DNA of 64,000 bases from Patescibacteria group bacterium (lineage in GTDB: Bacteria; Patescibacteriota; Microgenomatia; UBA1400; PJMF01), in the NCBI GenBank assembly GCA_041747555.1, contig JBGTEY010000014.1, positions 20,919 through 84,918 of the forward strand. The letters are read 5' to 3'. Of the stretch, positions 1 to 10,524 are shown piece after piece. The translations under genes were made by a program, and so were the position numbers. How positions within the stretch are numbered: position 1 is the first letter of the stretch; each line of letters starts with the position of its first letter. The notes below the pieces were generated by a model, which worked only from the letters and a program-made list of their open reading frames with translations, had not been told where the DNA came from and searched no databases.

Positions 1-131
1 TACCCATGAGAAAACATTTAGGTTGGTATGTCAAAGATTTTCATAATGCACGTCAGGTGAGAATTGAAGTATTCCAATCAAATTCAGCGGAAGAAGTTGA
101 GATATTATTTACTAAATACAATCTAGTGTAG
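1..131 (+). CDS. 3' fragment of tRNA-dihydrouridine synthase (Dus)-like gene (partial, runs off window start)
   Basis: Frame 3 translates to ...HLGWYVKDFHNARQVRIEVFQSNSAEEVEILFTKYNLV*, resembling the conserved Dus C-terminal 'HLGWY.KGF' segment; stop at 129-131. Confidence 0.4.
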   Translation, partial: PMRKHLGWYVKDFHNARQVRIEVFQSNSAEEVEILFTKYNLV

Positions 132-145
132 AATAACAATGCACT

Positions 146-838
146 ATGTGTGGATTTTTTGCATTTACCCCAAACATGTCTCCCAGAGAACTTGCTGAAG
201 CACTTGGTGTAACCAACTTACCGTCATCAATGGACGACATTGAATCGCTCAAGTTTTATCCAAAGTCCCCTATTCCAACTGTTTCAAAAAACTCTCCAAA
301 TCAACTCGTGATCCGCCGATGGTCGCTCATCCAAAGGTGGTGGGACAAGCCACTTGAAGATTTAAAATTTAATACATTTAATGCCCGATCGGAAGATATT
401 GCAGTTAAAGCCAGCTACAGAACGCCCTGGAAATTGGGTCAGCGGTGCCTGATTCCTGCAACTTGGTTCTATGAATTTAAAGCGAAAAAAATTGATTCTA
501 AAGTTGTAAAAATTCCATATAAGGTGCTGTTTAAGAATTCAGAACTCTTCACCATGGCTGGATTATATGAGAATTGGAAGGATGGGGATAATTTAATTGA
601 ATCCGTCACCATAATTACCTGCTCAAGCGCTCTACCCCTGAAATCTATACACGATCGGCAACCAGTGATTATTGAAAAATCTGATCGAGAGAAATGGTTA
701 GATAAAAGTACGGACATGGAAAAAATTGAGTTACTGCTTAAACCGACAGCAGATTTGGAGTGTTTTGAAATAGATAGAGGGTTTAATACAGCATTTGGCG
801 ATGATGTGAAACCAAGTTTGTTAGAACTAAAATCTTGA
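146..838 (+). CDS. SOS-response-associated peptidase (SRAP / YedK, DUF159), abasic-site processing protein
   Basis: Protein begins MCGFF (the invariant Cys2 nucleophile of the SRAP family), is 230 aa, and has the conserved internal tryptophan and 'TMAGLYE' regions of the family. Confidence 0.75.
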   Translation: MCGFFAFTPNMSPRELAEALGVTNLPSSMDDIESLKFYPKSPIPTVSKNSPNQLVIRRWSLIQRWWDKPLEDLKFNTFNARSEDIAVKASYRTPWKLGQRCLIPATWFYEFKAKKIDSKVVKIPYKVLFKNSELFTMAGLYENWKDGDNLIESVTIITCSSALPLKSIHDRQPVIIEKSDREKWLDKSTDMEKIELLLKPTADLECFEIDRGFNTAFGDDVKPSLLELKS

Positions 839-849
839 GCTTCTGGAAG

Positions 850-923
850 TGGTCGCACCTGGACTCGAACCAGGGACCTCACGAATGTGAATCGTGCGCT
901 CTAACCAACTGAGCTATGCGACC
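850..923 (-). tRNA. tRNA-Val (anticodon CAC)
   Basis: The reverse complement folds as a 74-nt cloverleaf: acceptor GGTCGCA/TGCGACC, D-stem GCTC/GAGC, anticodon stem CACGA/TCGTG with loop TTCACAT (anticodon CAC), T-arm CCTGG-TTCGAGT-CCAGG, discriminator A. CCA is not encoded. Confidence 0.85.
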
Positions 924-988
924 GCAAGACACATAGTATATCACTTGTTTGTTAGCTTTTTGTAAGTTTTTTATCACATACTTGGGAT

Positions 989-1627
989 ATGTGGCAAAGC
1001 ATTCGACAAGTTATTTTAGAAACCATTTTCCCCCCGCAGTGTTGTCATTGCAAATCACTCGGGAGTCTACTTTGCAACGATTGCTATCAGCGATTAGAGT
1101 TTATTCCTCGCGCATTTCAACCGGACGCAGAGCCACCGTTGGATAGCATTTCTGTTGCATGCACTTACAAAGGTGGGGCAAAATCACTAATCAAAGCACT
1201 CAAATTAAAACGTGTCATCGGGATAGCGGACACACTCGGCTGGCTCTTGCACCATACCTGTGCCATTCCAGAAGTAGATTACATCGTCGCTGCACCAGCC
1301 AATCCCAAAAATCATGCTCAGCGTGGTTTTGATCCTGCATTTGAAATTGCACGTGCACTTTCTCGACAAAATAAAACACCCCAGCTCTCACTACTTTACA
1401 GAACTGACGCCACCGCAGAACAAAAACAACTCAATCGCGAAGAACGAATGAAAAATTTGACCAATACGCTGGTGTGCATTAGAGGGCCAACGCCAATTGA
1501 ACAAAAATCAGTGGTGCTGGTGGATGACGTAGTCACATCGGGAGCAACTATGATCGAATGCGCACGAGTGCTCAAAAACGCTGGTATAAAAACAGTCCAC
1601 GGCCTCGCAGTAGCCCATGGCTACTAG
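989..1627 (+). CDS. comF: ComF-family protein (phosphoribosyltransferase-type competence protein ComFC)
   Basis: N-terminal 4-Cys zinc finger (CCHC...CNDC) and a C-terminal PRTase motif VVLVDDVVTSGATM; 212 aa. Confidence 0.75.
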   Translation: MWQSIRQVILETIFPPQCCHCKSLGSLLCNDCYQRLEFIPRAFQPDAEPPLDSISVACTYKGGAKSLIKALKLKRVIGIADTLGWLLHHTCAIPEVDYIVAAPANPKNHAQRGFDPAFEIARALSRQNKTPQLSLLYRTDATAEQKQLNREERMKNLTNTLVCIRGPTPIEQKSVVLVDDVVTSGATMIECARVLKNAGIKTVHGLAVAHGY

Positions 1628-1637
1628 GCAAAAAAAC

Positions 1638-1666
1638 TTGAAAATACAGCATTTTTGGCGTATACT
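1638..1666 (+). promoter_or_regulatory. sigma70-type promoter of ssrA (TTGAAA-17 bp-TATACT)
   Basis: -35 TTGAAA at 1638-1643, a 17-nt spacer, -10 TATACT at 1661-1666, about 10 nt upstream of the tmRNA 5' GGGG. Confidence 0.6.
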
Positions 1667-1676
1667 AGACAGATAT

Positions 1677-2099
1677 GGGGATGTATTGCTTTGACGTGAT
1701 ACGTACTTTAACATCTGCAAGTCGCCATGATTCGGGCGTTAACTAATCAAAAAACAATAACTGGCAATCAAAACGCCGATACAGTTCCAGGTGCAAAACC
1801 AGCCAATGGCATTCTTGCTATGGGCAATGACTTTGCTTCAAACCTGAGAACTCCAGCTTTCGCTTTCGCAGCGTAAAATGGCATTCACAAGTTGTGTCTC
1901 ACTGATGCACGCTTGTGAGTGAAAACTCAGTCAGTGTGACAGTGTGTGCTCTCCTATCGGTACACACACAAGACTTAGATAGGGAGGGCGTGCGGACGGT
2001 TTGTCTCTTCACCGCGCAGGTCAATTCAAAGAGTGACTACACTTGTAGATGATGTTGCAGCTTCGTTTGCGGACAGGGGGTCACACCCCCTCATCTCCA
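1677..2099 (+). ncRNA. ssrA: tmRNA (SsrA), tag reading frame about 1802-1876 encoding ...GNDFASNLRTPAFAFAA*
   Basis: 5' GGGGATG pairs with 3' CATCTCC, including the G3:U70 wobble that is the AlaRS identity element. A TTTGACG box follows the 5' stem. The 3' tRNA-like arm GGACAGGGGGTCACACCCCCTCATCTCCA matches the tmRNA consensus GGACGGGGGTTCAAATCCCCC..CTCCA. An internal ORF ends AFAFAA-TAA, a typical degradation-tag ending. Confidence 0.75.
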
Positions 2100-2107
2100 C
2101 AGAAAAA

Positions 2108-2129
2108 AGAGCCTTTATGGCTCTTTTTT
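2108..2129 (+). terminator. rho-independent terminator after ssrA
   Basis: AGAGCC-tttat-GGCTCT hairpin followed by TTTTTT. Confidence 0.6.
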
Positions 2130-2229
2130 GTTGAAGTAAGAGTATCCTTAGTAACACCTCAAGAAAACAAAACTGTCACAATTGTCTGGGCAGAATGGAA
2201 GCAAAACATGGCCACATTTACACACAGTT

Positions 2230-3120
2230 TCAAATTTCAAAGTAACCATTCGGACGTTTTGACTTAATTCCTTTGGAAGCAGAAAAAAGCGATGGTGACT
2301 CGGCCGCTGGTCTATAGATCCAACGATAATTACCTTTTTTAATAAGCATTTTATACCGACCATGCGCCCATCGATCAGCGGCATTATTGAAAAAGAAACG
2401 TTTTAATTCAGCATTATTGTTAAGCTGATCTAGTGCAGCCTCTTCTAGTTGTCGATGCACTCCCATATCATCTTCATGAACATCATAATTTGCCAATTTC
2501 CATAGAATGTGTGTCACGTAGCCGTAAATTTCGTGACCTCCATTGAGTTTTTCAATCTCTTCTTCAAATGGAATGAAGTAGAATGATATTGAATTGGGTG
2601 GAGATTTCAATTCAGCCCTATCACGATAGCCGTCAGCAATTTCTCTAAAAACGTCTACGCAACGGTCGTAGTCCTCACTACGAACTAGAACATCGGTATC
2701 AATATCTCCTTTTTCTATTCCAGCTCTTCTATAAAAAAACCCTGAATTCCCTAACCTTTGCTTTCGTACTCCATGTTTTCCAGTATGTGAGAGACCAACT
2801 GCAGCAGACCCCACTATCCAAGTGTGCAGCATACCTGATTCTCTGAGCTGGCTAAATTTTTCAGAAACAATTTTTTCAACATCTACTATTCCACTTCGGC
2901 TAAATCCATTGAAGTTTCCAACATTTAAATGATCAGGAAAATATGGGCAAAATTTTGCCTCAACTAACTCTGGTATGCTGAACGTTCCTGTTCTGATTAA
3001 CTCAGCAAAGCGAGCGACATTTTCAAGTGTTTCGAGGTGCTTAATATTAAACTCAGCGCTCAATCGATGGAGCAAAGGGTTTTCGGTGAAGGTTTCGCTT
3101 GATTCTCGTGTTTCGCTCAT
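2230..3120 (-). CDS. Pol-beta-superfamily nucleotidyltransferase-domain protein (AbiEii / CD-NTase / aminoglycoside-NTase-like; function unknown)
   Basis: Minimal NTase signature in LGNSGFFYRRAGIEKGDIDTDVLV (G[SN]S-x12-DxD) with a downstream hDh strand (CVDVF), followed by an alpha-helical C-terminal domain; 296 aa. Confidence 0.5.
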   Translation of the reverse strand: MSETRESSETFTENPLLHRLSAEFNIKHLETLENVARFAELIRTGTFSIPELVEAKFCPYFPDHLNVGNFNGFSRSGIVDVEKIVSEKFSQLRESGMLHTWIVGSAAVGLSHTGKHGVRKQRLGNSGFFYRRAGIEKGDIDTDVLVRSEDYDRCVDVFREIADGYRDRAELKSPPNSISFYFIPFEEEIEKLNGGHEIYGYVTHILWKLANYDVHEDDMGVHRQLEEAALDQLNNNAELKRFFFNNAADRWAHGRYKMLIKKGNYRWIYRPAAESPSLFSASKGIKSKRPNGYFEI

Positions 3121-3219
3121 ATTTAACTATTTCAGCTTCAAAACTGTTTTAAATAAAAAAAATACACGCCATTTCTTCTGAGTCTAACCCGATCCACACC
3201 TGGTCGAGGCTCACTTTTA

Positions 3220-3654
3220 CTATTTAGTCAATTGATCAGCTATAAAAACCCACTCATTGTGCTGCTCACCAGTCAAAGTGAGAGATTTGCCATGAATAGA
3301 AGGGCTTGTTGATGATATGTATAGCGTAGTCTGAGCCTTACTTCGATCAACCGTGTACCTACTCCAATCTCGTAAGCCTAATGAATCACCACCGCCCGCT
3401 CCATTCACAGTGGTAAACACAGTGGTATCAGGATCACTCTGTTCGAGCCAGATTTGTCCAGCCAACAGGGGAGGACCTCCCTCTGAAGTAGCTGGCCTTT
3501 GATCGATTTTTACTGCACCTTCAGGCGGAATATACTCTGTTGCAGCAGGTTTTGCTCCAGATTCAATTACCTGTGCTTGAGTGGCTGCATCACTATCAGG
3601 TTTTTTTACACTAAAATTGGCTGCTTCTTCTGGTGCTCCATACTCGCTCATCAT
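3220..3654 (-). CDS. hypothetical acidic soluble protein (144 aa), locally higher GC than neighbours
   Basis: ORF with no recognised motifs; immediately upstream of, and co-oriented with, the NTase gene. Confidence 0.4.
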   Translation of the reverse strand: MMSEYGAPEEAANFSVKKPDSDAATQAQVIESGAKPAATEYIPPEGAVKIDQRPATSEGGPPLLAGQIWLEQSDPDTTVFTTVNGAGGGDSLGLRDWSRYTVDRSKAQTTLYISSTSPSIHGKSLTLTGEQHNEWVFIADQLTK

Positions 3655-3812
3655 AGTATCCTTTTAGAAAATAACAATTACTTTTTTAATAAAAATCTAT
3701 AACTACTATATCAGAATAAAACATTCAAACATTTAGTTCAACTACGAATTTCACAGCAATTATTTCAAAACTCCTTAAAGTTACTTTAATAAAGTTGCTT
3801 AAAATCTTGCAT

Positions 3813-5450
3813 TTATTCCAAAACAGTTTGCCCAGTTGGTAGTAAATTTACAAAATGTTCCGCTGTGCTAATATCCAGATTTGATGGATCAATACTCACT
3901 TCTAGCAACATGCCTCGCCTTGTTTCTGGACTAAAGTACTGATCAAACACAAAATTTCCCAGTGAATAATAGATCATTTTTTCTTTGTACACCTCTGATG
4001 GCTGGATAACATGAGGATGCGATCCAATGATGATATCTGCACCTTCGTCAATAAACCGATGCGCCAAGGATTGAATGGACGGATTTATTTCTGTGCTGTA
4101 TTCCACTCCCCAATGGGTATACAAAATAACCACATCTACTTGTGGTCGCACTAGTTTTAAATCATTCATTGTAGATTCAAACGCATTAGACGAAAATTCA
4201 TTGTAGTTAACAAATCCAATTTTCATCCCTTGAATATCTTTGGTAAAGTAGCTTTGATCAATTTCTGTGCCAACATTTCCAAAAAAACCAACGGATGATG
4301 CATTGAGGTAGTCAAAGGTTTGTGTCAATCCAGCCTGCCCAAAATTTAGAGTGTGATTGTTGCCCAAATTGACAATCGTAATGTTGTGATCTGATAAAAC
4401 TGCTGCTGTCTCTGGAGGTGAAGTAAAAATATAATTATTGCTTGCACCAAACGCACTCCCTTCACTTACCGATGCATTGTCTGTAATTGGGCTTTCAAGG
4501 TTAACCACCACGTGGTCAAATTCATGAAAGAAATCTCGTACATCTTGCAAAATAAAGTCATAACTTTTTTGCTTGGCAATCTGTCTAATATAACGATCAA
4601 ACGATAGATCACCAGCAAACAGCAACTTAATCTTTTCAGGTTGGACAACTACTCTTTCTCCCCTTTCATGGGTTCTTACTCCCTGTCTTGCAGGCCACTT
4701 CATTACAAAATAACTAGTGGTGCTGTCTTGCACATGATTAAACTGACTTGAGTTACCGTGAAAAATAATTTCAGGACAGCCTGATGAATATTCTTTGATT
4801 GCTTCTAATTGCAATAAAATATATACACAAGCAGGACAATCCAGGTAGTCATCACTGAGCTGTAAAGCTTCCTCAACTTGATGATTGCAAATCATCGATC
4901 GAGTTGTTACATCTAGTGAAGTTGCTTGTCCAACATCTAAATAATGAGAAAAATCTACTGACGCTAAAATCATCGTGGGTTGTTGCTGCACCTCTAGGTT
5001 GAGTCGATCAGTTAGTTCGTCTAACGCATCCTGAGGTACATTTCTAGTTACTAAATAATTCTCCACCTCTGCATGGGGAAAATACTGCTTAATATATGGC
5101 CAGTGAATGGTAGCTCCGTGGTCACCCTCAACTACTGTGTCGTCAGTCACAAGATAGTTTATATCTGGTTGATGATGGTTGGGAGATAGTAGTATTATTT
5201 TTTTAATCGTACTACCCTGGTTCGCAGAAATATTTTGATAGAAATCGTCAAATCGATCGAGTAATACGTCATGGTGTGGCAAGATTACTGCTTGTGGTAG
5301 CAACTGGGGTGATGATTGTGGCAGCGTGTTTTCTTGACTCGGGACGAAGTATATTTTTCCAAACAAATACACCAGAAACAGAAAAGCAAACAAACCTAGA
5401 ATTACTAGAAAATACTTAGACAGGCGGGGCATTATCGGGAGGCGTGGCAT
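3813..5450 (-). CDS. membrane-anchored CapA/PgsA-family metallophosphoesterase with an extra N-terminal domain
   Basis: C-terminal CapA motifs VDVVILYTHWGVEYS...GADIIIGSHPHVIQP...YYSLGNFVFDQ; N-terminal TM helix; 35-bp overlap with the upstream giant ORF, consistent with an operon. Confidence 0.65.
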   Translation of the reverse strand: MPRLPIMPRLSKYFLVILGLFAFLFLVYLFGKIYFVPSQENTLPQSSPQLLPQAVILPHHDVLLDRFDDFYQNISANQGSTIKKIILLSPNHHQPDINYLVTDDTVVEGDHGATIHWPYIKQYFPHAEVENYLVTRNVPQDALDELTDRLNLEVQQQPTMILASVDFSHYLDVGQATSLDVTTRSMICNHQVEEALQLSDDYLDCPACVYILLQLEAIKEYSSGCPEIIFHGNSSQFNHVQDSTTSYFVMKWPARQGVRTHERGERVVVQPEKIKLLFAGDLSFDRYIRQIAKQKSYDFILQDVRDFFHEFDHVVVNLESPITDNASVSEGSAFGASNNYIFTSPPETAAVLSDHNITIVNLGNNHTLNFGQAGLTQTFDYLNASSVGFFGNVGTEIDQSYFTKDIQGMKIGFVNYNEFSSNAFESTMNDLKLVRPQVDVVILYTHWGVEYSTEINPSIQSLAHRFIDEGADIIIGSHPHVIQPSEVYKEKMIYYSLGNFVFDQYFSPETRRGMLLEVSIDPSNLDISTAEHFVNLLPTGQTVLE

Positions 5451-8400
5451 CTTTTGTAAATTTTGAAAAGTGCCTTGGTTTCTTGATCCAAATTCCGTAC
5501 CCTGCTACAGGAATGAGCACTAGGATGCCAGCCACTATCCATTTCCATGAAAAAGGAAGTGAAGACTTTGCAGGGGATGGTAATTCTCCAGAAGGAAAAC
5601 TATTCTGAATAGCCAGCAATTCAAGAGAATTCTTTCCATCAATCACTAACTGGCTCGCATTGCTTCTAGCCCATAAAGTAGGGTCAAAAGAGTGCCTTAC
5701 TATCGCTGGTGGAGTATCAAAAGTCCCCTGCGAAATAACCCGAGCCTTATATCTGAATGTACTTACATCTTGGTCTGTGTAACTAATTTTCAGCTCTACA
5801 GTTTGTCCACTTATTTTTATTTGACCGAACTGGTTTTTGCCGACATTGTCAAACACGCCATTATCAAGTGACTCATCAATAGCAACTAAACCAGATGGGA
5901 GATAGTCAATTATTTCTAAATTTCTTTCTCCCAATCCTAGATTTTTAACCGTAAGCTCAACTACCACTAAGTCACCAACTTCAATTGGCTTTTCATTCTT
6001 ACTAGCTGACAAATACTTGCGACTAATTTCCAGATGATTGCTCTCACTTTCAGCCGCCCTATCAGTAATAAACTCAGTTGTTTTTACTGTCGAGTACACT
6101 GGTGATTCACCTTGATGCGTTATCTTCAATTGTCGGTCTGTAATCCCACCTACCTCAAAGGGAATTTCTACGACTTGTTCATCGCTTGATTTGAAAGTAC
6201 CTGATCTCATCACTTGATCATCCACCGACACTGTATAAGCAAGTTCTTGACTTGAGTCTGTGTAATACGCGAGGTATTCTGCGATACTTCTGATAAGAGA
6301 ATAAGAGGCCTGCTGATCACGATTTCGATACAAGAAATCTAAACCTTTTTCTACTATTTCTTGATCTGCTTTGAGTTCTATTAATGCTGCCACTGCGCGT
6401 GAAGAGTTCTTATAAATCCCACCGAATCTAAACGTTTGATCAGCTGGCCATGACAATTGATACGAGTTTTCAAACTTAAGATCGAGAATTTGTTGAATTG
6501 CAGCGGACTGATCCACAAATCCCTGGCGATAATTTGCCATAATTGCCATTAGAGCACGTTCCACATTAGTAGACGAATTGACCTCCAGATAGTGTCTCGA
6601 CAAGTCTAATTCCGGTGTTAATGAAAAAGCATATTGCTGCATGACTTGATCTTCATACTTGTTTGGTTGCCACTTTGCAAAGTATTCAATAACTGTGTTG
6701 AGTGTATTTTGATCAACAACGATCCCTGACTTACGAGCAAAAATTAATGCCTCTAGGAATTCTACTTTTTGTTCAGAACCGGTAAAGTTTTTCCAGGACT
6801 GATCTGATTCAAATGATTCAACCAACGTATGTATACTATTTTGAGCAAGTTCCTGATTTTGAGCGGAACTGTATTCAAGATTTAGCTCTGACCCAAACTG
6901 CTCACCAATTGCAACCATGGATAAAATAGCTGGAGCATTCGAAAAATATATACTTTCAGTTACTAAAATAGTCTGCCAGTCAGACTTAAATTCGGGATAT
7001 TTATTTGCTTGCAACGTTAGCACTGTTTGCGTTTTATCGCTCACAGCTCCAGTAGAAACTGGTATGTCATACGTCTGTTGATTTTCACCTAAAAGGTAGC
7101 TGTCTTGCCAAAAACCATATTCATATACGGGAATCTCATGGAAAACCTCATCGATATACTCATTTTGCCCTGTTGTTTGTGCCCTAACATGAAATGTTGC
7201 TGGACTCTGTTGACTAGTAATTTCTACTGGCCAACTCAGCGCCTCCAAACCTTTTGCAGCCAAAAGCAAAGGTTGTCCAGTTACCTGAAAATCTGAGAAA
7301 TTGAGACTAGCATCAATTTCTAAATTTAAATCTTGGTCAGTAAAATTATTAAGTAACGCTGATACATGTAAAATATCACCTTGCCTCAAGAAAGATGGCA
7401 TCACAGGCCTGACCACTAATTCTTTGGTTACAATAAACTCATCTTCACCTGAACCAACTTGTGTTTTTTGATTCGCTGATACCCCAGCAATAACCCAAGT
7501 TGTTAAATTGTCTGGCAGCTGAATGGTAACTCTTGCCTTACCCTCAGCATCAGTGGCAACATGCGGGTTCCAATATGCAGTATCTTTAAATATTGACCTA
7601 CTATCACCCTTATCATTGTGTACATAAATCCCATTTGCAATAAATGTGTGGTATGTATCAACAGTTAGGTTGTATACTGAGAATTTTCCCCGCATCCACT
7701 CAATAGAAGAAACGCGCTCTGTAAGACCTTCTGCTGTGGTCAATTCGTCACCAACTTTGAGTTGACCGGCTGTCTGCCACTTACCATTCACTAATAACTT
7801 ATGTTCTGGAGTAATTTTTAAATCTTGATTGATAATGAGATACCCATCTACCTCAACCAGATGAGTGTCGGTAACTTGTGCAGAGACAAGCTCATCACTA
7901 GTGCTCGATTTTAACGTTTGTATCCAGTCTCCTGTTTTGACCTGACTTATTTCTTTGAGTGACGAATCTGACATTAAAATTGAAGTATCTGCTGCAAAAC
8001 AACCTCCGCCACCTTCTGCTCCTGAGCTTGATAATCCCTCGAAGGAGTGATGCAGCAGCGGGAAGGTGTATCGCTCGCCCCAGAATGTGTCGAAAATTCT
8101 CCCGTAATTATCCCTGTTCAATTCCAGCAACGCCTTATCAAACACCCATACACTGACGTCTGTTTGAACTGGATTGCCTAGGGCATCTTTGGCAGCTATG
8201 TCCACTATTGCTGTTTGAGCAGGACCATATATTTCTTGATCAAAATCAAATGTAAGCTCCACCTTCTTATCGTCGGTACTAACCTCAACATCTTGACTTC
8301 CTTGCACCCAATAATCACCAACAAAACTGCCGGCTGCCACGCGAACATTGGGCTGATAGTCTTCTGGAATAGTGAGTGAGAACTGCTTACTACCGTTGGT

Positions 8401-10524
8401 CAGAACTTGGTACGTTTTGGAATAACTTCGTCCCACATAGACAAACAGATCTTGAGACTCAAAGCTGGGAAGTAACGTAATTGTAGCAGTTTCTCCAGGT
8501 GCATAACTGTCTTTGTCTGTTTCTATATCAATTTTTTCTCCACCCATAATTGAGTTTTTTACTTCTTCTGTTCTGACATAAAAATGCATATCACCTCTTA
8601 TGACATTGTCATGCTTATCTCGAGCTTCAAACTCAATCTCGTGACTGTCAGATTTTTTGGGGGTGTAACTCATAGTTACCTCACCCTCATTATTAGAAAT
8701 CAGGCGTTGAGCTTCACCCACCGGAAATCTTTTGTCTCCTGAATGTATCTCATAAACTTGCGCGGAAACTTCTATTCCATTCGTATCAACGCCTGCTTTT
8801 GTTGGCAAAATGTTTATAGAAAAATTACTATTTTTACTAATTACGTGAGAATTATTACGGTTTGAAGGGTTTTGTTCGATTACAAAATCACCTGGATTTA
8901 TCAAAATTTGCCTGGCATCGTTTGTGGCTGTCCCAGTCGCATCTACATACTCCAAAACAATAGCCCACATTTGCCGATAGCCTGTGGTATTTTTCACATC
9001 TATCTCTAGGTCAGCGACACCATTTTTATCCAACTGCAGACTACCTTGTGCAATTATTGGACTTCGTGCACCGAAATCAGTAACGCTGGTATTGAAAGTG
9101 ATTCCTTCATAATGACCATCTAGACTTGCTTTATACTGGTACACTTTATATCTCACTGTTTGATCGCTCAACGGTTGACCCAAAAAATAGCTACCCTTAG
9201 CCTGAGCCTTGAATGTATCGCCTGGATAATATGTATGCTCTTCTAGATGTAATGAAATTTCGCTATCAGGCTTACGAAACTCAGCTACCTGAACTGACGT
9301 TCCGGTTAAATATGTATCACCGTCATAAACTGTTAAACTGTAATATCCCACTTCCAAATCATCGGGTAAGCTGATTTCATGATCAATTGTTCCCAAATCA
9401 TCAATTAATAATTGCGCTTCATACAAATTATTTTGCCCATTTTGACCTCCAGATAATACTGCTCTCACTTGACCACTTGGTAATGAATACGAAGCATCAT
9501 CATCTGTGCGAAAAATTGCCTTGTAATACAGTGTGTCTCCTGGCTTGTAGATAAAACGGTCAGTGAAAATGAATGATTTTTTGTCAATTATTCTTGGCCC
9601 GAAAGAGTAATACGAACCATTTTGATTGCGATGCGCAAAACCATTGAGGTTAATCGGCACAATTGTCAGGGAGTTATTATGAGAAACAATGGCAATGTCC
9701 AATGCATCACTCGCTGCCACTTCAACAATGCCTTGATCATTGGTGGACACGTCTCCCAGAGTTTTCACGGTGTCTTGTGTATTTAAGAGCTTGATCTTTG
9801 CATCAGCAACGAGCTTTTTATCACTATCTTGTACCCAGAACGTAATTTTGTTATCAGATTTATTTGCTACGCCCGCCAGTGACGATCTTACAATTACTGT
9901 TTTAATTTTTTGGTCTTGGTGCGTTCCCTCTAGATACCATATGCCCTCCTGCTCTAAGTCGAGGTTTGGCCGAGACTGGTGATCCTGGCTTGAATCACCA
10001 CCAATTTGCTGATTAAACGTTGAAACGAGCTCAAGTTGATTCGTATCGAACTCATACAATTTTTTTAATTGGCTTCCATACCAGCCCTCACTTTCTTTAG
10101 ATGAATAGCGGAGATAATTAAGTAAATCTTCTTCATTGATCTTATATAAACTAAAATTTACTTCTTCTTTAAAGTTCCAGGAGCGAATTTCAACGACCGG
10201 CTCCATAGCGCTACTCAGAACAATTACACCTTCATTCATGTTTCTACCAATATTGGATGTAAAGTAAACACTATCGCTTAAGCCAAGCACATCGCCCTCG
10301 GGTTTTTCTGCGATCGGTTGCGGTGAAGCAGTGACAGCTTTAAAGCGAGGTGGCGGTGAGGATTGCTCCACCCTTGCCCCTGTATTAGAAAAATAGTTTT
10401 GAGTCAAATAGATTGATGTTGAGCTAGAAACTACGATGCTGACGACCACAAATAAAAAAAGAACGGTAGGTAAGCGCGAGAAGTGCATCAGCGCACTCTG
10501 TAGTTTCTTTTTTTCGGGAGACAT
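5416..10524 (-). CDS. giant (1702 aa) alpha-2-macroglobulin-like surface protein with an inserted Hint (intein/Hedgehog-like) domain and N- and C-terminal TM anchors
   Basis: A2M_N_2/MG7-like segment 'FKDTAYWNPHVATDAEGKARVTIQLPDNLTTWVIAG'. Alpha/alpha-toroid region with degenerate thioester site AIGEQ (canonical CxEQ). Hint blocks CFAADTSILM ... TPEH ... VYNLTVDTYHTFIANGIYVHN. Hydrophobic helices at both termini. Confidence 0.7.
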   Translation of the reverse strand: MSPEKKKLQSALMHFSRLPTVLFLFVVVSIVVSSSTSIYLTQNYFSNTGARVEQSSPPPRFKAVTASPQPIAEKPEGDVLGLSDSVYFTSNIGRNMNEGVIVLSSAMEPVVEIRSWNFKEEVNFSLYKINEEDLLNYLRYSSKESEGWYGSQLKKLYEFDTNQLELVSTFNQQIGGDSSQDHQSRPNLDLEQEGIWYLEGTHQDQKIKTVIVRSSLAGVANKSDNKITFWVQDSDKKLVADAKIKLLNTQDTVKTLGDVSTNDQGIVEVAASDALDIAIVSHNNSLTIVPINLNGFAHRNQNGSYYSFGPRIIDKKSFIFTDRFIYKPGDTLYYKAIFRTDDDASYSLPSGQVRAVLSGGQNGQNNLYEAQLLIDDLGTIDHEISLPDDLEVGYYSLTVYDGDTYLTGTSVQVAEFRKPDSEISLHLEEHTYYPGDTFKAQAKGSYFLGQPLSDQTVRYKVYQYKASLDGHYEGITFNTSVTDFGARSPIIAQGSLQLDKNGVADLEIDVKNTTGYRQMWAIVLEYVDATGTATNDARQILINPGDFVIEQNPSNRNNSHVISKNSNFSINILPTKAGVDTNGIEVSAQVYEIHSGDKRFPVGEAQRLISNNEGEVTMSYTPKKSDSHEIEFEARDKHDNVIRGDMHFYVRTEEVKNSIMGGEKIDIETDKDSYAPGETATITLLPSFESQDLFVYVGRSYSKTYQVLTNGSKQFSLTIPEDYQPNVRVAAGSFVGDYWVQGSQDVEVSTDDKKVELTFDFDQEIYGPAQTAIVDIAAKDALGNPVQTDVSVWVFDKALLELNRDNYGRIFDTFWGERYTFPLLHHSFEGLSSSGAEGGGGCFAADTSILMSDSSLKEISQVKTGDWIQTLKSSTSDELVSAQVTDTHLVEVDGYLIINQDLKITPEHKLLVNGKWQTAGQLKVGDELTTAEGLTERVSSIEWMRGKFSVYNLTVDTYHTFIANGIYVHNDKGDSRSIFKDTAYWNPHVATDAEGKARVTIQLPDNLTTWVIAGVSANQKTQVGSGEDEFIVTKELVVRPVMPSFLRQGDILHVSALLNNFTDQDLNLEIDASLNFSDFQVTGQPLLLAAKGLEALSWPVEITSQQSPATFHVRAQTTGQNEYIDEVFHEIPVYEYGFWQDSYLLGENQQTYDIPVSTGAVSDKTQTVLTLQANKYPEFKSDWQTILVTESIYFSNAPAILSMVAIGEQFGSELNLEYSSAQNQELAQNSIHTLVESFESDQSWKNFTGSEQKVEFLEALIFARKSGIVVDQNTLNTVIEYFAKWQPNKYEDQVMQQYAFSLTPELDLSRHYLEVNSSTNVERALMAIMANYRQGFVDQSAAIQQILDLKFENSYQLSWPADQTFRFGGIYKNSSRAVAALIELKADQEIVEKGLDFLYRNRDQQASYSLIRSIAEYLAYYTDSSQELAYTVSVDDQVMRSGTFKSSDEQVVEIPFEVGGITDRQLKITHQGESPVYSTVKTTEFITDRAAESESNHLEISRKYLSASKNEKPIEVGDLVVVELTVKNLGLGERNLEIIDYLPSGLVAIDESLDNGVFDNVGKNQFGQIKISGQTVELKISYTDQDVSTFRYKARVISQGTFDTPPAIVRHSFDPTLWARSNASQLVIDGKNSLELLAIQNSFPSGELPSPAKSSLPFSWKWIVAGILVLIPVAGYGIWIKKPRHFSKFTKDATPPDNAPPV
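7615..8001 (-). other. Hint / bacterial intein-like domain (129 aa) embedded in the giant ORF
   Basis: Cys codon at 7999-8001 is preceded by GGGG (Hedgehog-like G|CF site); the domain ends HN-D at 7612-7620; block B TxxH is present. Confidence 0.7.

Follow-up and report, generated by a model that had tools for sequence, protein, structure and literature searches.

The subject of this analysis is a pair of adjacent open reading frames (ORFs), ORF-A and ORF-B, that lie next to the transfer-messenger RNA (tmRNA) gene, ssrA, of a Patescibacteria group bacterium. The DNA studied, referred to here as the window, is a 64,000 nucleotide (nt) stretch of contig JBGTEY010000014.1 (assembly GCA_041747555.1, positions 20,919 to 84,918 of the forward strand). 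A first-pass annotation of the window had described ORF-A as a nucleotidyltransferase (NTase) of the Pol-beta superfamily and had proposed that the two genes formed an accessory or defense islet at a tmRNA integration site. Our analyses indicated that ORF-A belongs to a very rare family that likely has the NTase fold, and they provided no support for the islet.

The ssrA gene is convergent with ORF-A and ORF-B, which are both on the reverse strand (Table 1). The ORF coordinates agreed with the earlier description of the first two ORFs beyond ssrA on the opposite strand as encoding proteins of 296 and 144 amino acids (aa), and the computed isoelectric point (pI) of the ORF-B product bore out its description as acidic (19 Asp and Glu residues versus 11 Lys and Arg). 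ORF-B shares its strand with ORF-A and lies 99 nt upstream; a terminator-like site was looked for in this gap and none was found. The AT-rich spacer upstream of ORF-B is likely its promoter region and possibly also serves ORF-A.

Both of the ORFs beside ssrA are real genes. When scored with a codon model derived from the window's other long ORFs (gene mean 0.236 +/- 0.067 bits per codon), ORF-A had +0.155 and ORF-B +0.204 bits per codon in their own frames, values inside the range of the window's genes, and all five other frames were negative. The GC content of the window is 43.1% and its genes average 43.5 +/- 2.5%; ORF-B is at 45.5% (z = +0.8) and ORF-A at 39.7% (z = -1.5), the latter resembling the nearby PGA_cap (38.9%) and alpha-2-macroglobulin (40.3%) genes. 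The earlier description of the pair as locally GC-richer was correct for ORF-B relative to its immediate neighbors (39-40% GC) and incorrect relative to the window, in which ORF-B is normal. On a broader scale, the region from 1 to 10500, which contains the SRAP, ORF-A, PGA_cap and alpha-2-macroglobulin genes, has a GC content 3-4 points below the rest of the window and a lower GC content at third codon positions. Genes in these first ~10 kb are at 39-40% GC versus 43.5%, with the ComF-like gene and ORF-B as exceptions.

Table 1. Features of the ssrA, ORF-A and ORF-B region (window positions; residue numbers are those of ORF-A) and contexts of the genes for ORF-A relatives (locus handles).
Feature	Position or locus	Strand	Basis or context
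tmRNA (ssrA) gene, complete	1677-2102	+	Rfam RF00023, 96 bits, E 3.4e-36, model positions 1-374 of 374
Perfect hairpin with A-run and T-run flanks, AAAAAAGAGCC-TTTAT-GGCTCTTTTTT	2103-2129		Between convergent ssrA and ORF-A; sequence read
ORF-A, 296 aa, rare unannotated family, predicted Pol-beta-type NTase core	2230-3120	-	ORF, coding score, homologues, AlphaFold2 model
Residues 185-296, helical C-terminal domain	2233-2568	-	Model helices within 185-261
Residues 72-184, predicted NTase core	2569-2907	-	Element order in model, invariant columns, weak Foldseek matches
Codons of D139-I140-D141, motif II (DhD), putative metal-binding carboxylates	2698-2706	-	D139 and D141 invariant
Residues 114-137, 24-residue basic beta-hairpin insertion between motifs I and II	2710-2781	-	Model (strands 117-123 and 127-133), alignment
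Codons of G104-S105, motif I (hG[GS]), directly after strand 97-103	2806-2811	-	GGG TCT; invariant in 11/11
Residues 1-71, N-terminal helical module	2908-3120	-	Helices 15-24, 32-43, 49-54 and 63-66
ORF-B, 144 aa, pI 4.61	3220-3654	-	ORF; AAGGA ribosome-binding site 6 nt before ATG; coding score
AT-rich spacer, about 31% GC, upstream of ORF-B	3655-3812	-	Composition and sequence
Relative P0002	L001		Upstream: DUF1003 gene overlapping P0002 start
Relative P0003	L003-L007		Upstream: 119-aa ORF at 280 nt; pentose-phosphate genes and DsbD flank
Relative P0004	L008		Upstream: divergent PPAT/DUF359 gene
Relative P0005	L012		Upstream: PIF1 fragment; PIN/MazE pairs and HinfI fragments in the vicinity
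Relative P0008	L014/L015		Upstream: divergent RuvC
Relative P0009	L016		At contig end
Relative P0011	L017		At contig end; PIN/Phd pair downstream
Relative P0012			Upstream: divergent 149-aa gene; no locus DNA

No Pfam, NCBIfam, PADLOC or PHROGs model (E <= 1-10) matched ORF-A or ORF-B, and neither had a meaningful match among the sequences of the Protein Data Bank (PDB). In a word-indexed search of 5.8 billion clusters ORF-A was found in two, its own and that of one homologue. An exhaustive phmmer search of 1.84 billion 50%-identity clusters identified 11 representatives of the family, ORF-A included, and the ten family clusters that were looked up had one to five members each. When the 5.8 billion clusters were searched with a family profile, three known members were among the matches listed, and the Joint Genome Institute (JGI) metagenomes contributed one short contig with a relative (L011 245-1081, forward strand). 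No relatives were found in IMG/VR viral contigs or in GTDB representative genomes, no native sequence of any family member matched a Pfam family, and a literature search for this kind of family found nothing. We regard the ORF-A family as new in that no library describes it, although the fold of which it is a variant is very well known.

The 11 family sequences, which are 18-47% identical to ORF-A, share invariant residues L52, P62, G104, S105, D139, D141, R250, K261 and G263, and I140, G117 and R122 are nearly invariant. The conserved GS and DxD motifs are separated by 33 residues. The first-pass annotation had placed the core at G[SN]S-x12-DID-x-D, and that string is present in ORF-A (G124-N125-S126-x12-D139-I140-D141-T142-D143). 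However, conservation does not extend to the GNS triplet or to D143, as the 47%-identical homologue carries ADS and DIDIS, and the true first motif is G104-S105. Two further observations concern single members of the family. The relative on the short JGI contig, which is closest to P0005, departs from the G-S that is invariant elsewhere and has G-T at motif I (ITGTASVGL). One metagenome-assembled genome (MAG), GCA_964501955.1, carries two divergent paralogues on different contigs and in unrelated contexts, P0004 (L008 4125-4964) and P0008 (L014 6647-7546).

The AlphaFold2 model of ORF-A, which was built on the 11-sequence alignment, had a predicted local distance difference test (pLDDT) score of 90.4 and a predicted template modeling (pTM) score of 0.87. 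In the model, residues 1-12 are disordered and the remainder of the N-terminal module is helical, with conserved L52 and a conserved P59-Y60-x-P62 motif. The predicted core then runs from a helix (72-94) through a strand (97-103), G104-S105, a short helix (105-108) and the basic hairpin to a second strand (140-146) with D139 and D141 at its start, followed by a helix (148-167) and a third strand (178-184). The core of Pol-beta NTases has the order alpha-beta-[GS]-alpha-beta[DxD]-alpha-beta, and the ORF-A model minus its hairpin has this same order. The hairpin contains the nearly invariant G117 and R122. The C-terminal domain was helical in the model, as the earlier annotation had described it, and it has the conserved motifs N246-x2-D249-R250 and K261-x-G263 (2332-2385) and also P276/F279. 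By analogy with two-domain aminoglycoside NTases, this domain may have a role in the binding of nucleoside triphosphate (NTP) or substrate.

Searches of PDB sequences with ORF-A alone, with the family profile and with a core-only profile gave chance matches only. Similarly, a Foldseek search with the ORF-A model found no PDB match at E <= 1e-3 and no match among viral structures (BFVD). The best Foldseek matches (E 0.1-1) were mostly NTase folds: AAD(9) (6sxj/6xz0), the minimal nucleotidyltransferase (MNT) antitoxin 7ae2_B, 2rff, HalB, AadA, Tam41, NF90 and poly(A) polymerase. The match to 7ae2_B had a probability of 0.87 and a template modeling (TM) score per target of 0.49, and that to 2rff a probability of 0.82 and a TM-score of 0.47.

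The wide spacing of the GS and DxD motifs is due to the insertion of the hairpin. We removed residues 114-137 in silico from every member of the family. NTP_transf_2 (PF01909) or Polbeta (PF18765) was then the top Pfam match in five of ten members (E 0.004-0.17, 12.7-18 bits), with all scores below the gathering cut-offs of 21 and 26.9. These matches spanned profile positions 7-52, which include both motifs, and in one member the match reached position 86. When the hairpin-less family profile was searched against 177,635 PDB sequences, the top match was the aminoglycoside nucleotidyltransferase (ANT) ANT(4')-IIb (4ebj, E 0.034), in an alignment that ran helix-strand-GS-DxD-strand, and 2rff ranked fourth. 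Comparison of the hairpin-less sequences with PADLOC and NCBIfam gave no consistent match, although one member matched the PADLOC "Cyclase" model (E 0.027). In addition, hhalign and HMMER set the DhD motif of ORF-A against the catalytic motifs of AadA (SDIDLLV) and ANT(4')-IIb (SDIDFDVLV); in the hhalign comparison of the family profile with a manually entered AadA sequence, the motif block alone aligned and the alignment was not significant. We interpret these results as indicating that the hairpin hides the ORF-A family from the hidden Markov models (HMMs) of NTases.

Several points weigh against the reading of ORF-A as an NTase. No NTase match, by sequence or by fold, was significant or above a curated threshold, and the window's own ORF-A had no Pfam match even after its hairpin was removed. 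GS and DxD are 33 residues apart, whereas the canonical spacing, 9-13, is far smaller. The third carboxylate of the active site is not conserved: strand 178-184 has no conserved acidic residue, and the nearest column, that of E186, contains D, E, Q or N, so that some or all members of the family could be catalytically inactive. Finally, the excision of the hairpin was designed after the motifs had been seen and so partly begs the question, and we treat it as supportive rather than independent evidence. Based on the position of the motifs in the model, the weak but NTase-enriched fold matches and the sub-threshold matches of the hairpin-less sequences, ORF-A is likely an NTase-fold protein. The superfamily assignment made in the first-pass annotation is thus probably right with respect to the fold, with the reservation that no database match to it is significant. 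By analogy with the superfamily, ORF-A would bind metal and NTP and is probably also an active NTase.

An unlikely alternative to an active enzyme is that ORF-A retains the fold without catalysis and acts as a binding or scaffolding module. Such a protein could have the variable residue found at position 186 in place of a third carboxylate and the abnormal motif spacing that the hairpin creates, and it could escape the threshold of every NTase HMM, as ORF-A does. However, G104, S105, D139 and D141 are strictly invariant among sequences as little as 18% identical, in which most other positions vary, and invariance of this kind is typical of a maintained active site. The further invariant basic residues R250 and K261 would fit triphosphate binding. 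ORF-A also does not appear to be a housekeeping CCA-adding enzyme, a family that the first-pass annotation had considered, as no Pfam or NCBIfam model, PolyA_pol (PF01743) included, matched it, and with 11 representatives in 1.84 billion clusters its family is not near-universal.

The explanation that we favor, with moderate confidence, is that ORF-A is an ordinary chromosomal, stand-alone gene for a highly divergent member of the Pol-beta NTase superfamily, belonging to a very rare and undescribed family. In this explanation the position of ORF-A beside ssrA would be incidental, with no functional link to the tmRNA, and ORF-B would be a lineage-specific gene, unrelated to ORF-A, that merely lies upstream of it. 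If ORF-A functions as its superfamily relatives do, G104-S105, where the first core strand ends, would hold Mg2+ and the triphosphate of the NTP together with D139 and D141 on the next core strand. Basic and polar residues of the hairpin (G117 and R122) and of the C-terminal helical domain (N246, R250 and K261) may position the nucleotide and the acceptor, and the nucleotidyl group would then pass to a hydroxyl of the acceptor. As the layout of an NTase core followed by a helical domain is most like that of the two-domain ANT enzymes, our first guess for the acceptor would be a small molecule and our second an RNA 3' end.

The two-domain ANT enzymes (ANT(4')-IIb, 4ebj; AadA/ANT(3'')(9), 4cs6 and 5g4a; AAD(9), 6sxj) resemble ORF-A in having an N-terminal Pol-beta core with the motifs hGS ... 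SDIDhhV followed by an all-helical C-terminal domain, in their length of about 250-300 aa, and in being encoded by stand-alone genes. They were also the best, though weak, fold matches and hairpin-less sequence matches. ORF-A differs from them in that it has no HMM membership, a 24-residue basic hairpin between the motifs, an extra N-terminal helical module of roughly 70 residues with the PY-x-P motif, and no conserved catalytic-base glutamate or third carboxylate; its TM-scores to these enzymes are about 0.22-0.28. A more specific version of our favored explanation is that ORF-A is a resistance-type or metabolite-modifying NTase, that is, a functional equivalent of the ANT or Lnu enzymes. The Foldseek matches with the greatest aligned length were AAD(9) and AadA (200-212 columns), the top PDB sequence match of the hairpin-less profile was ANT(4')-IIb, and a stand-alone gene is usual for a resistance NTase. 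Nevertheless, we consider this version doubtful on account of the low TM-scores, the lack of any ANT or Lnu match in NCBIfam or Pfam, the absence of a conserved equivalent of the AadA catalytic base, E87, and the fact that none of the family loci seen has a plasmid-like or mobile setting. The proposal of an ANT or Lnu enzyme in the first-pass annotation received no HMM match, its sole link being the sub-threshold similarity of the hairpin-less profile to 4ebj.

The MNTs, represented by MntA of the HEPN-MNT system (7ae2_B, 6m6u) and the Sulfolobus protein 2rff, gave the best match to the core fold per target length (TM-scores of 0.47-0.49, probabilities of 0.82-0.87), and 2rff was the one that the sequence search with the hairpin-less profile also found. 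However, MNTs are about 100-140 aa long and paired with HEPN proteins, whereas ORF-A has 296 aa and additional domains, and among its neighbors we found neither a HEPN domain nor a partner with an Rx4-6H motif. The assignment of ORF-A to the MNTs, which had also been suggested, failed in the HMM comparison.

The type IV toxins of the AbiEii/MenT (DUF1814) type are similar to ORF-A in length and in combining an NTase core with a C-terminal helical domain, and in the window there is a small same-strand gene upstream. These similarities suggest a different reading of the locus, in which ORF-A and ORF-B form a two-gene toxin-antitoxin or abortive-infection module, with ORF-A as an NTase toxin that might, for example, modify tRNA acceptor ends and the acidic ORF-B as its antitoxin. 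The 99-nt gap between the genes with no terminator-like structure in it, the small size and acidity of ORF-B, the proximity of two ORF-A relatives to PIN toxin-antitoxin pairs and the presence of two paralogues in a single MAG would all be consistent with such a module. However, neither the AbiEii/DUF1814 model of Pfam (PF08843) nor the AbiE model of PADLOC matched any of the 11 family members, with or without the hairpin, and the proposal of an AbiEii toxin is therefore not upheld. AbiEi carries a DNA-binding domain and the MenT antitoxins a kinase domain, and neither is predicted in ORF-B. The first-pass annotation was correct that none of the usual partners is obvious, as neither an AbiEi-like winged helix-turn-helix protein nor an effector gene of a cyclic-oligonucleotide-based antiphage signaling system (CBASS) lies beside ORF-A.

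ORF-B has no counterpart elsewhere. In the 5.8 billion clusters it matched only itself, and a six-frame tblastn search for it at every locus with an ORF-A relative gave no match; it also has no similarity to the 119-aa protein encoded upstream of P0003. The genes upstream of ORF-A relatives differ from locus to locus (Table 1), and in three of the seven contexts that could be resolved the upstream gene is divergent, so that the ORF-A-family gene there needs its own promoter and no upstream partner is required by the family. As the upstream neighbors differ and ORF-B has no match in the related loci, ORF-A has no conserved partner. The earlier suggestion of a variant two-gene system thus finds no support in these comparisons, and we consider a toxin-antitoxin module quite improbable.

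The single-sequence AlphaFold2 model of ORF-B (pLDDT 38) was uninformative, and the protein probably has a disordered N-terminal half and a beta-rich C-terminal half. Residues 44-117 of ORF-B had weak PDB sequence matches (E 0.03-1), nearly all of which were to antibody heavy-chain variable or nanobody domains; "WLEQ...RYTVDRSKAQTTLYISS" aligned with "WVRQ...RFTISRDNAKNTLYLQMSS" and the canonical cysteines were absent. These matches could be due to chance inflated by the redundancy of the PDB, or could reflect a V-set-like beta-sandwich. A more speculative scheme can be built, in which ORF-A founds a new NTase family whose hairpin and PY-x-P module define a new substrate class (e.g., a MenT-like toxin that modifies RNA ends, or a synthase of a nucleotide signal), and is paired here with ORF-B as a fast-evolving, possibly immunoglobulin-V-like, acidic inhibitor. 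The pair would then make up a conflict module of a kind not seen before, in a genome that is reduced and probably belongs to the candidate phyla radiation. We regard this scheme as very unlikely.

Only one locus among the ORF-A-family contexts hints at a variable or defense region. The contig of P0005 (L012) derives from JGI 3300006068, which according to the literature is a Yellowstone hot-spring mini-metagenome. Its positions 2532-9062 are rich in remnants of conflict systems: two PIN genes, one of which is paired with a gene for a MazE-like antitoxin, a truncated PIF1 helicase and three fragments of HinfI restriction endonucleases.

Genes for tmRNA are known hot spots of integration, and the islet proposed for the window would combine ORF-A, as a synthase similar to the cGAS/DncV-like nucleotidyltransferases (CD-NTases) or SMODS proteins or as a Hailong-type NTase, with ORF-B as a novel effector or sensor. 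The CD-NTase/SMODS synthases of CBASS and HalB of Hailong share GS and DxD motifs with ORF-A, and HalB was among the weak fold matches (9dbi_C, E 0.17). Unlike in these proteins, the third Asp is not conserved in ORF-A, and no cyclase or SMODS HMM match is common to its family members; the native sequences had no Pfam or PADLOC match of this type, which leaves the CD-NTase proposal without support. CBASS and Hailong loci also have an adjacent effector or ion-channel gene, and no such gene was found next to ORF-A, whose neighbors are the tmRNA gene, the domainless ORF-B, and the PGA_cap and alpha-2-macroglobulin genes.

The region around ssrA was also searched for signs of insertion. Although the Rfam model covers the tmRNA gene completely, ARAGORN made no tmRNA call at 1677-2102 and reported only a tRNA-Val at 849-923. 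The terminal CCA of the tmRNA is not encoded, the sequence being ...CATCTCC-A-CAG. The hairpin that follows, the stem of which was present in both the minimum free energy and centroid folds and which a simple terminator scan did not list, is likely a bidirectional intrinsic terminator between ssrA and ORF-A. The check for a direct repeat of the tmRNA 3' end that the first-pass annotation had suggested was negative: the last 24 nt occur once in the window with up to three mismatches allowed, and a short-word BLAST search with the last 96 nt found only chance matches of 10-12 nt (E >= 0.26). Direct or inverted repeats bounding ORF-A and ORF-B were limited to short matches at chance level, with no relevant repeat family. 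No integrase, recombinase or transposase is encoded by the ORFs annotated in the first 20.5 kb of the window; their products are SRAP, a ComF-like phosphoribosyltransferase, PGA_cap, a 1702-aa alpha-2-macroglobulin, HAD, an ABC transporter, DUF4349, FtsK, RNase J and an AAA ATPase. The genes around ORF-A and ORF-B, from those for SRAP and the ComF-like protein to those for FtsK and RNase J, are of the housekeeping kind. No tmRNA gene was found near the other ORF-A-family loci, and the family is thus not universally syntenic with ssrA. When the flanking ComF-like protein was looked up by exact match, the same contig alone came back. For the flanking PGA_cap gene, the nearest relative among GTDB representatives is in a Ca. 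Moraniibacteriota MAG (50% identity), at a locus that lacks synteny with the window and is not near a tmRNA gene. This match, together with the gene content and the compact arrangement of genes on one strand, suggests that the host belongs to the candidate phyla radiation.

As ORF-A neither matches a housekeeping CCA-adding enzyme nor is universally found next to ssrA, the idea of an islet at a tmRNA integration site is unsupported rather than disproved. A very old insertion at ssrA may have taken place, which would count against the ordinary chromosomal gene that we favor. Even so, the position of ORF-A and ORF-B as the first genes after ssrA, the rarity and patchy distribution of the family, which would fit an accessory status, and the one relative located among restriction-enzyme fragments and toxin-antitoxin genes are outweighed by the unduplicated tmRNA 3' end, the retention by the tmRNA of its own terminator hairpin, the native-like composition, the lack of an integrase or recombinase in the 20 kb examined, of a PADLOC match common to two members, of relatives in viral contigs and of other members near a tRNA or tmRNA attachment-type site, and by ORF-B having no transmembrane segment, nuclease domain or other recognizable effector domain, and we consider a defense islet highly improbable. 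For the toxin-antitoxin and defense readings alike, we found no positive evidence.

If ORF-A is an active enzyme, it would represent a small new branch of the NTase superfamily that is invisible to current HMM libraries because the hairpin splits its two catalytic motifs. It would also serve as a useful warning for the annotation of NTases in lineages of which few genomes have been sampled. With about 20 sequences in 15 billion, the family is too rare to matter broadly, and ORF-A opens no new biological question alone, as neither a partner nor a context nor a phenotype indicates a particular process. The main practical result is a negative one, namely that adjacency to a tmRNA gene together with a GS/DxD motif is not enough to call a defense islet.

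Two of the neighboring genes had unusual features. The PGA_cap (CapA-like) protein (3813-5450, reverse strand) is extended at its N terminus by about 270 residues, with a weak match of the Memo-like type (E 0.0017), and its Ca. Moraniibacteriota relative shares only the PGA_cap half, matching residues 269-544. The bacterial alpha-2-macroglobulin (5416-10524, reverse strand) contains MG2, A2M_BRD, A2M and bMG10 domains, with a Hint/intein-like module at residues ~835-971 (PT-HINT 5e-12, Intein_splicing 1.9e-8, Vint 2.7e-8) between the bait-region and A2M domains. The first residue of this module is Cys (GGGG/CFAADT, the slash marking its start), and it has a TPEH block and a VHN end, after which the next residue is Asp rather than Cys, Ser or Thr. 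Based on this Asp, the module resembles the autoprocessing domains known as bacterial intein-like (BIL) more than it does a splicing intein.

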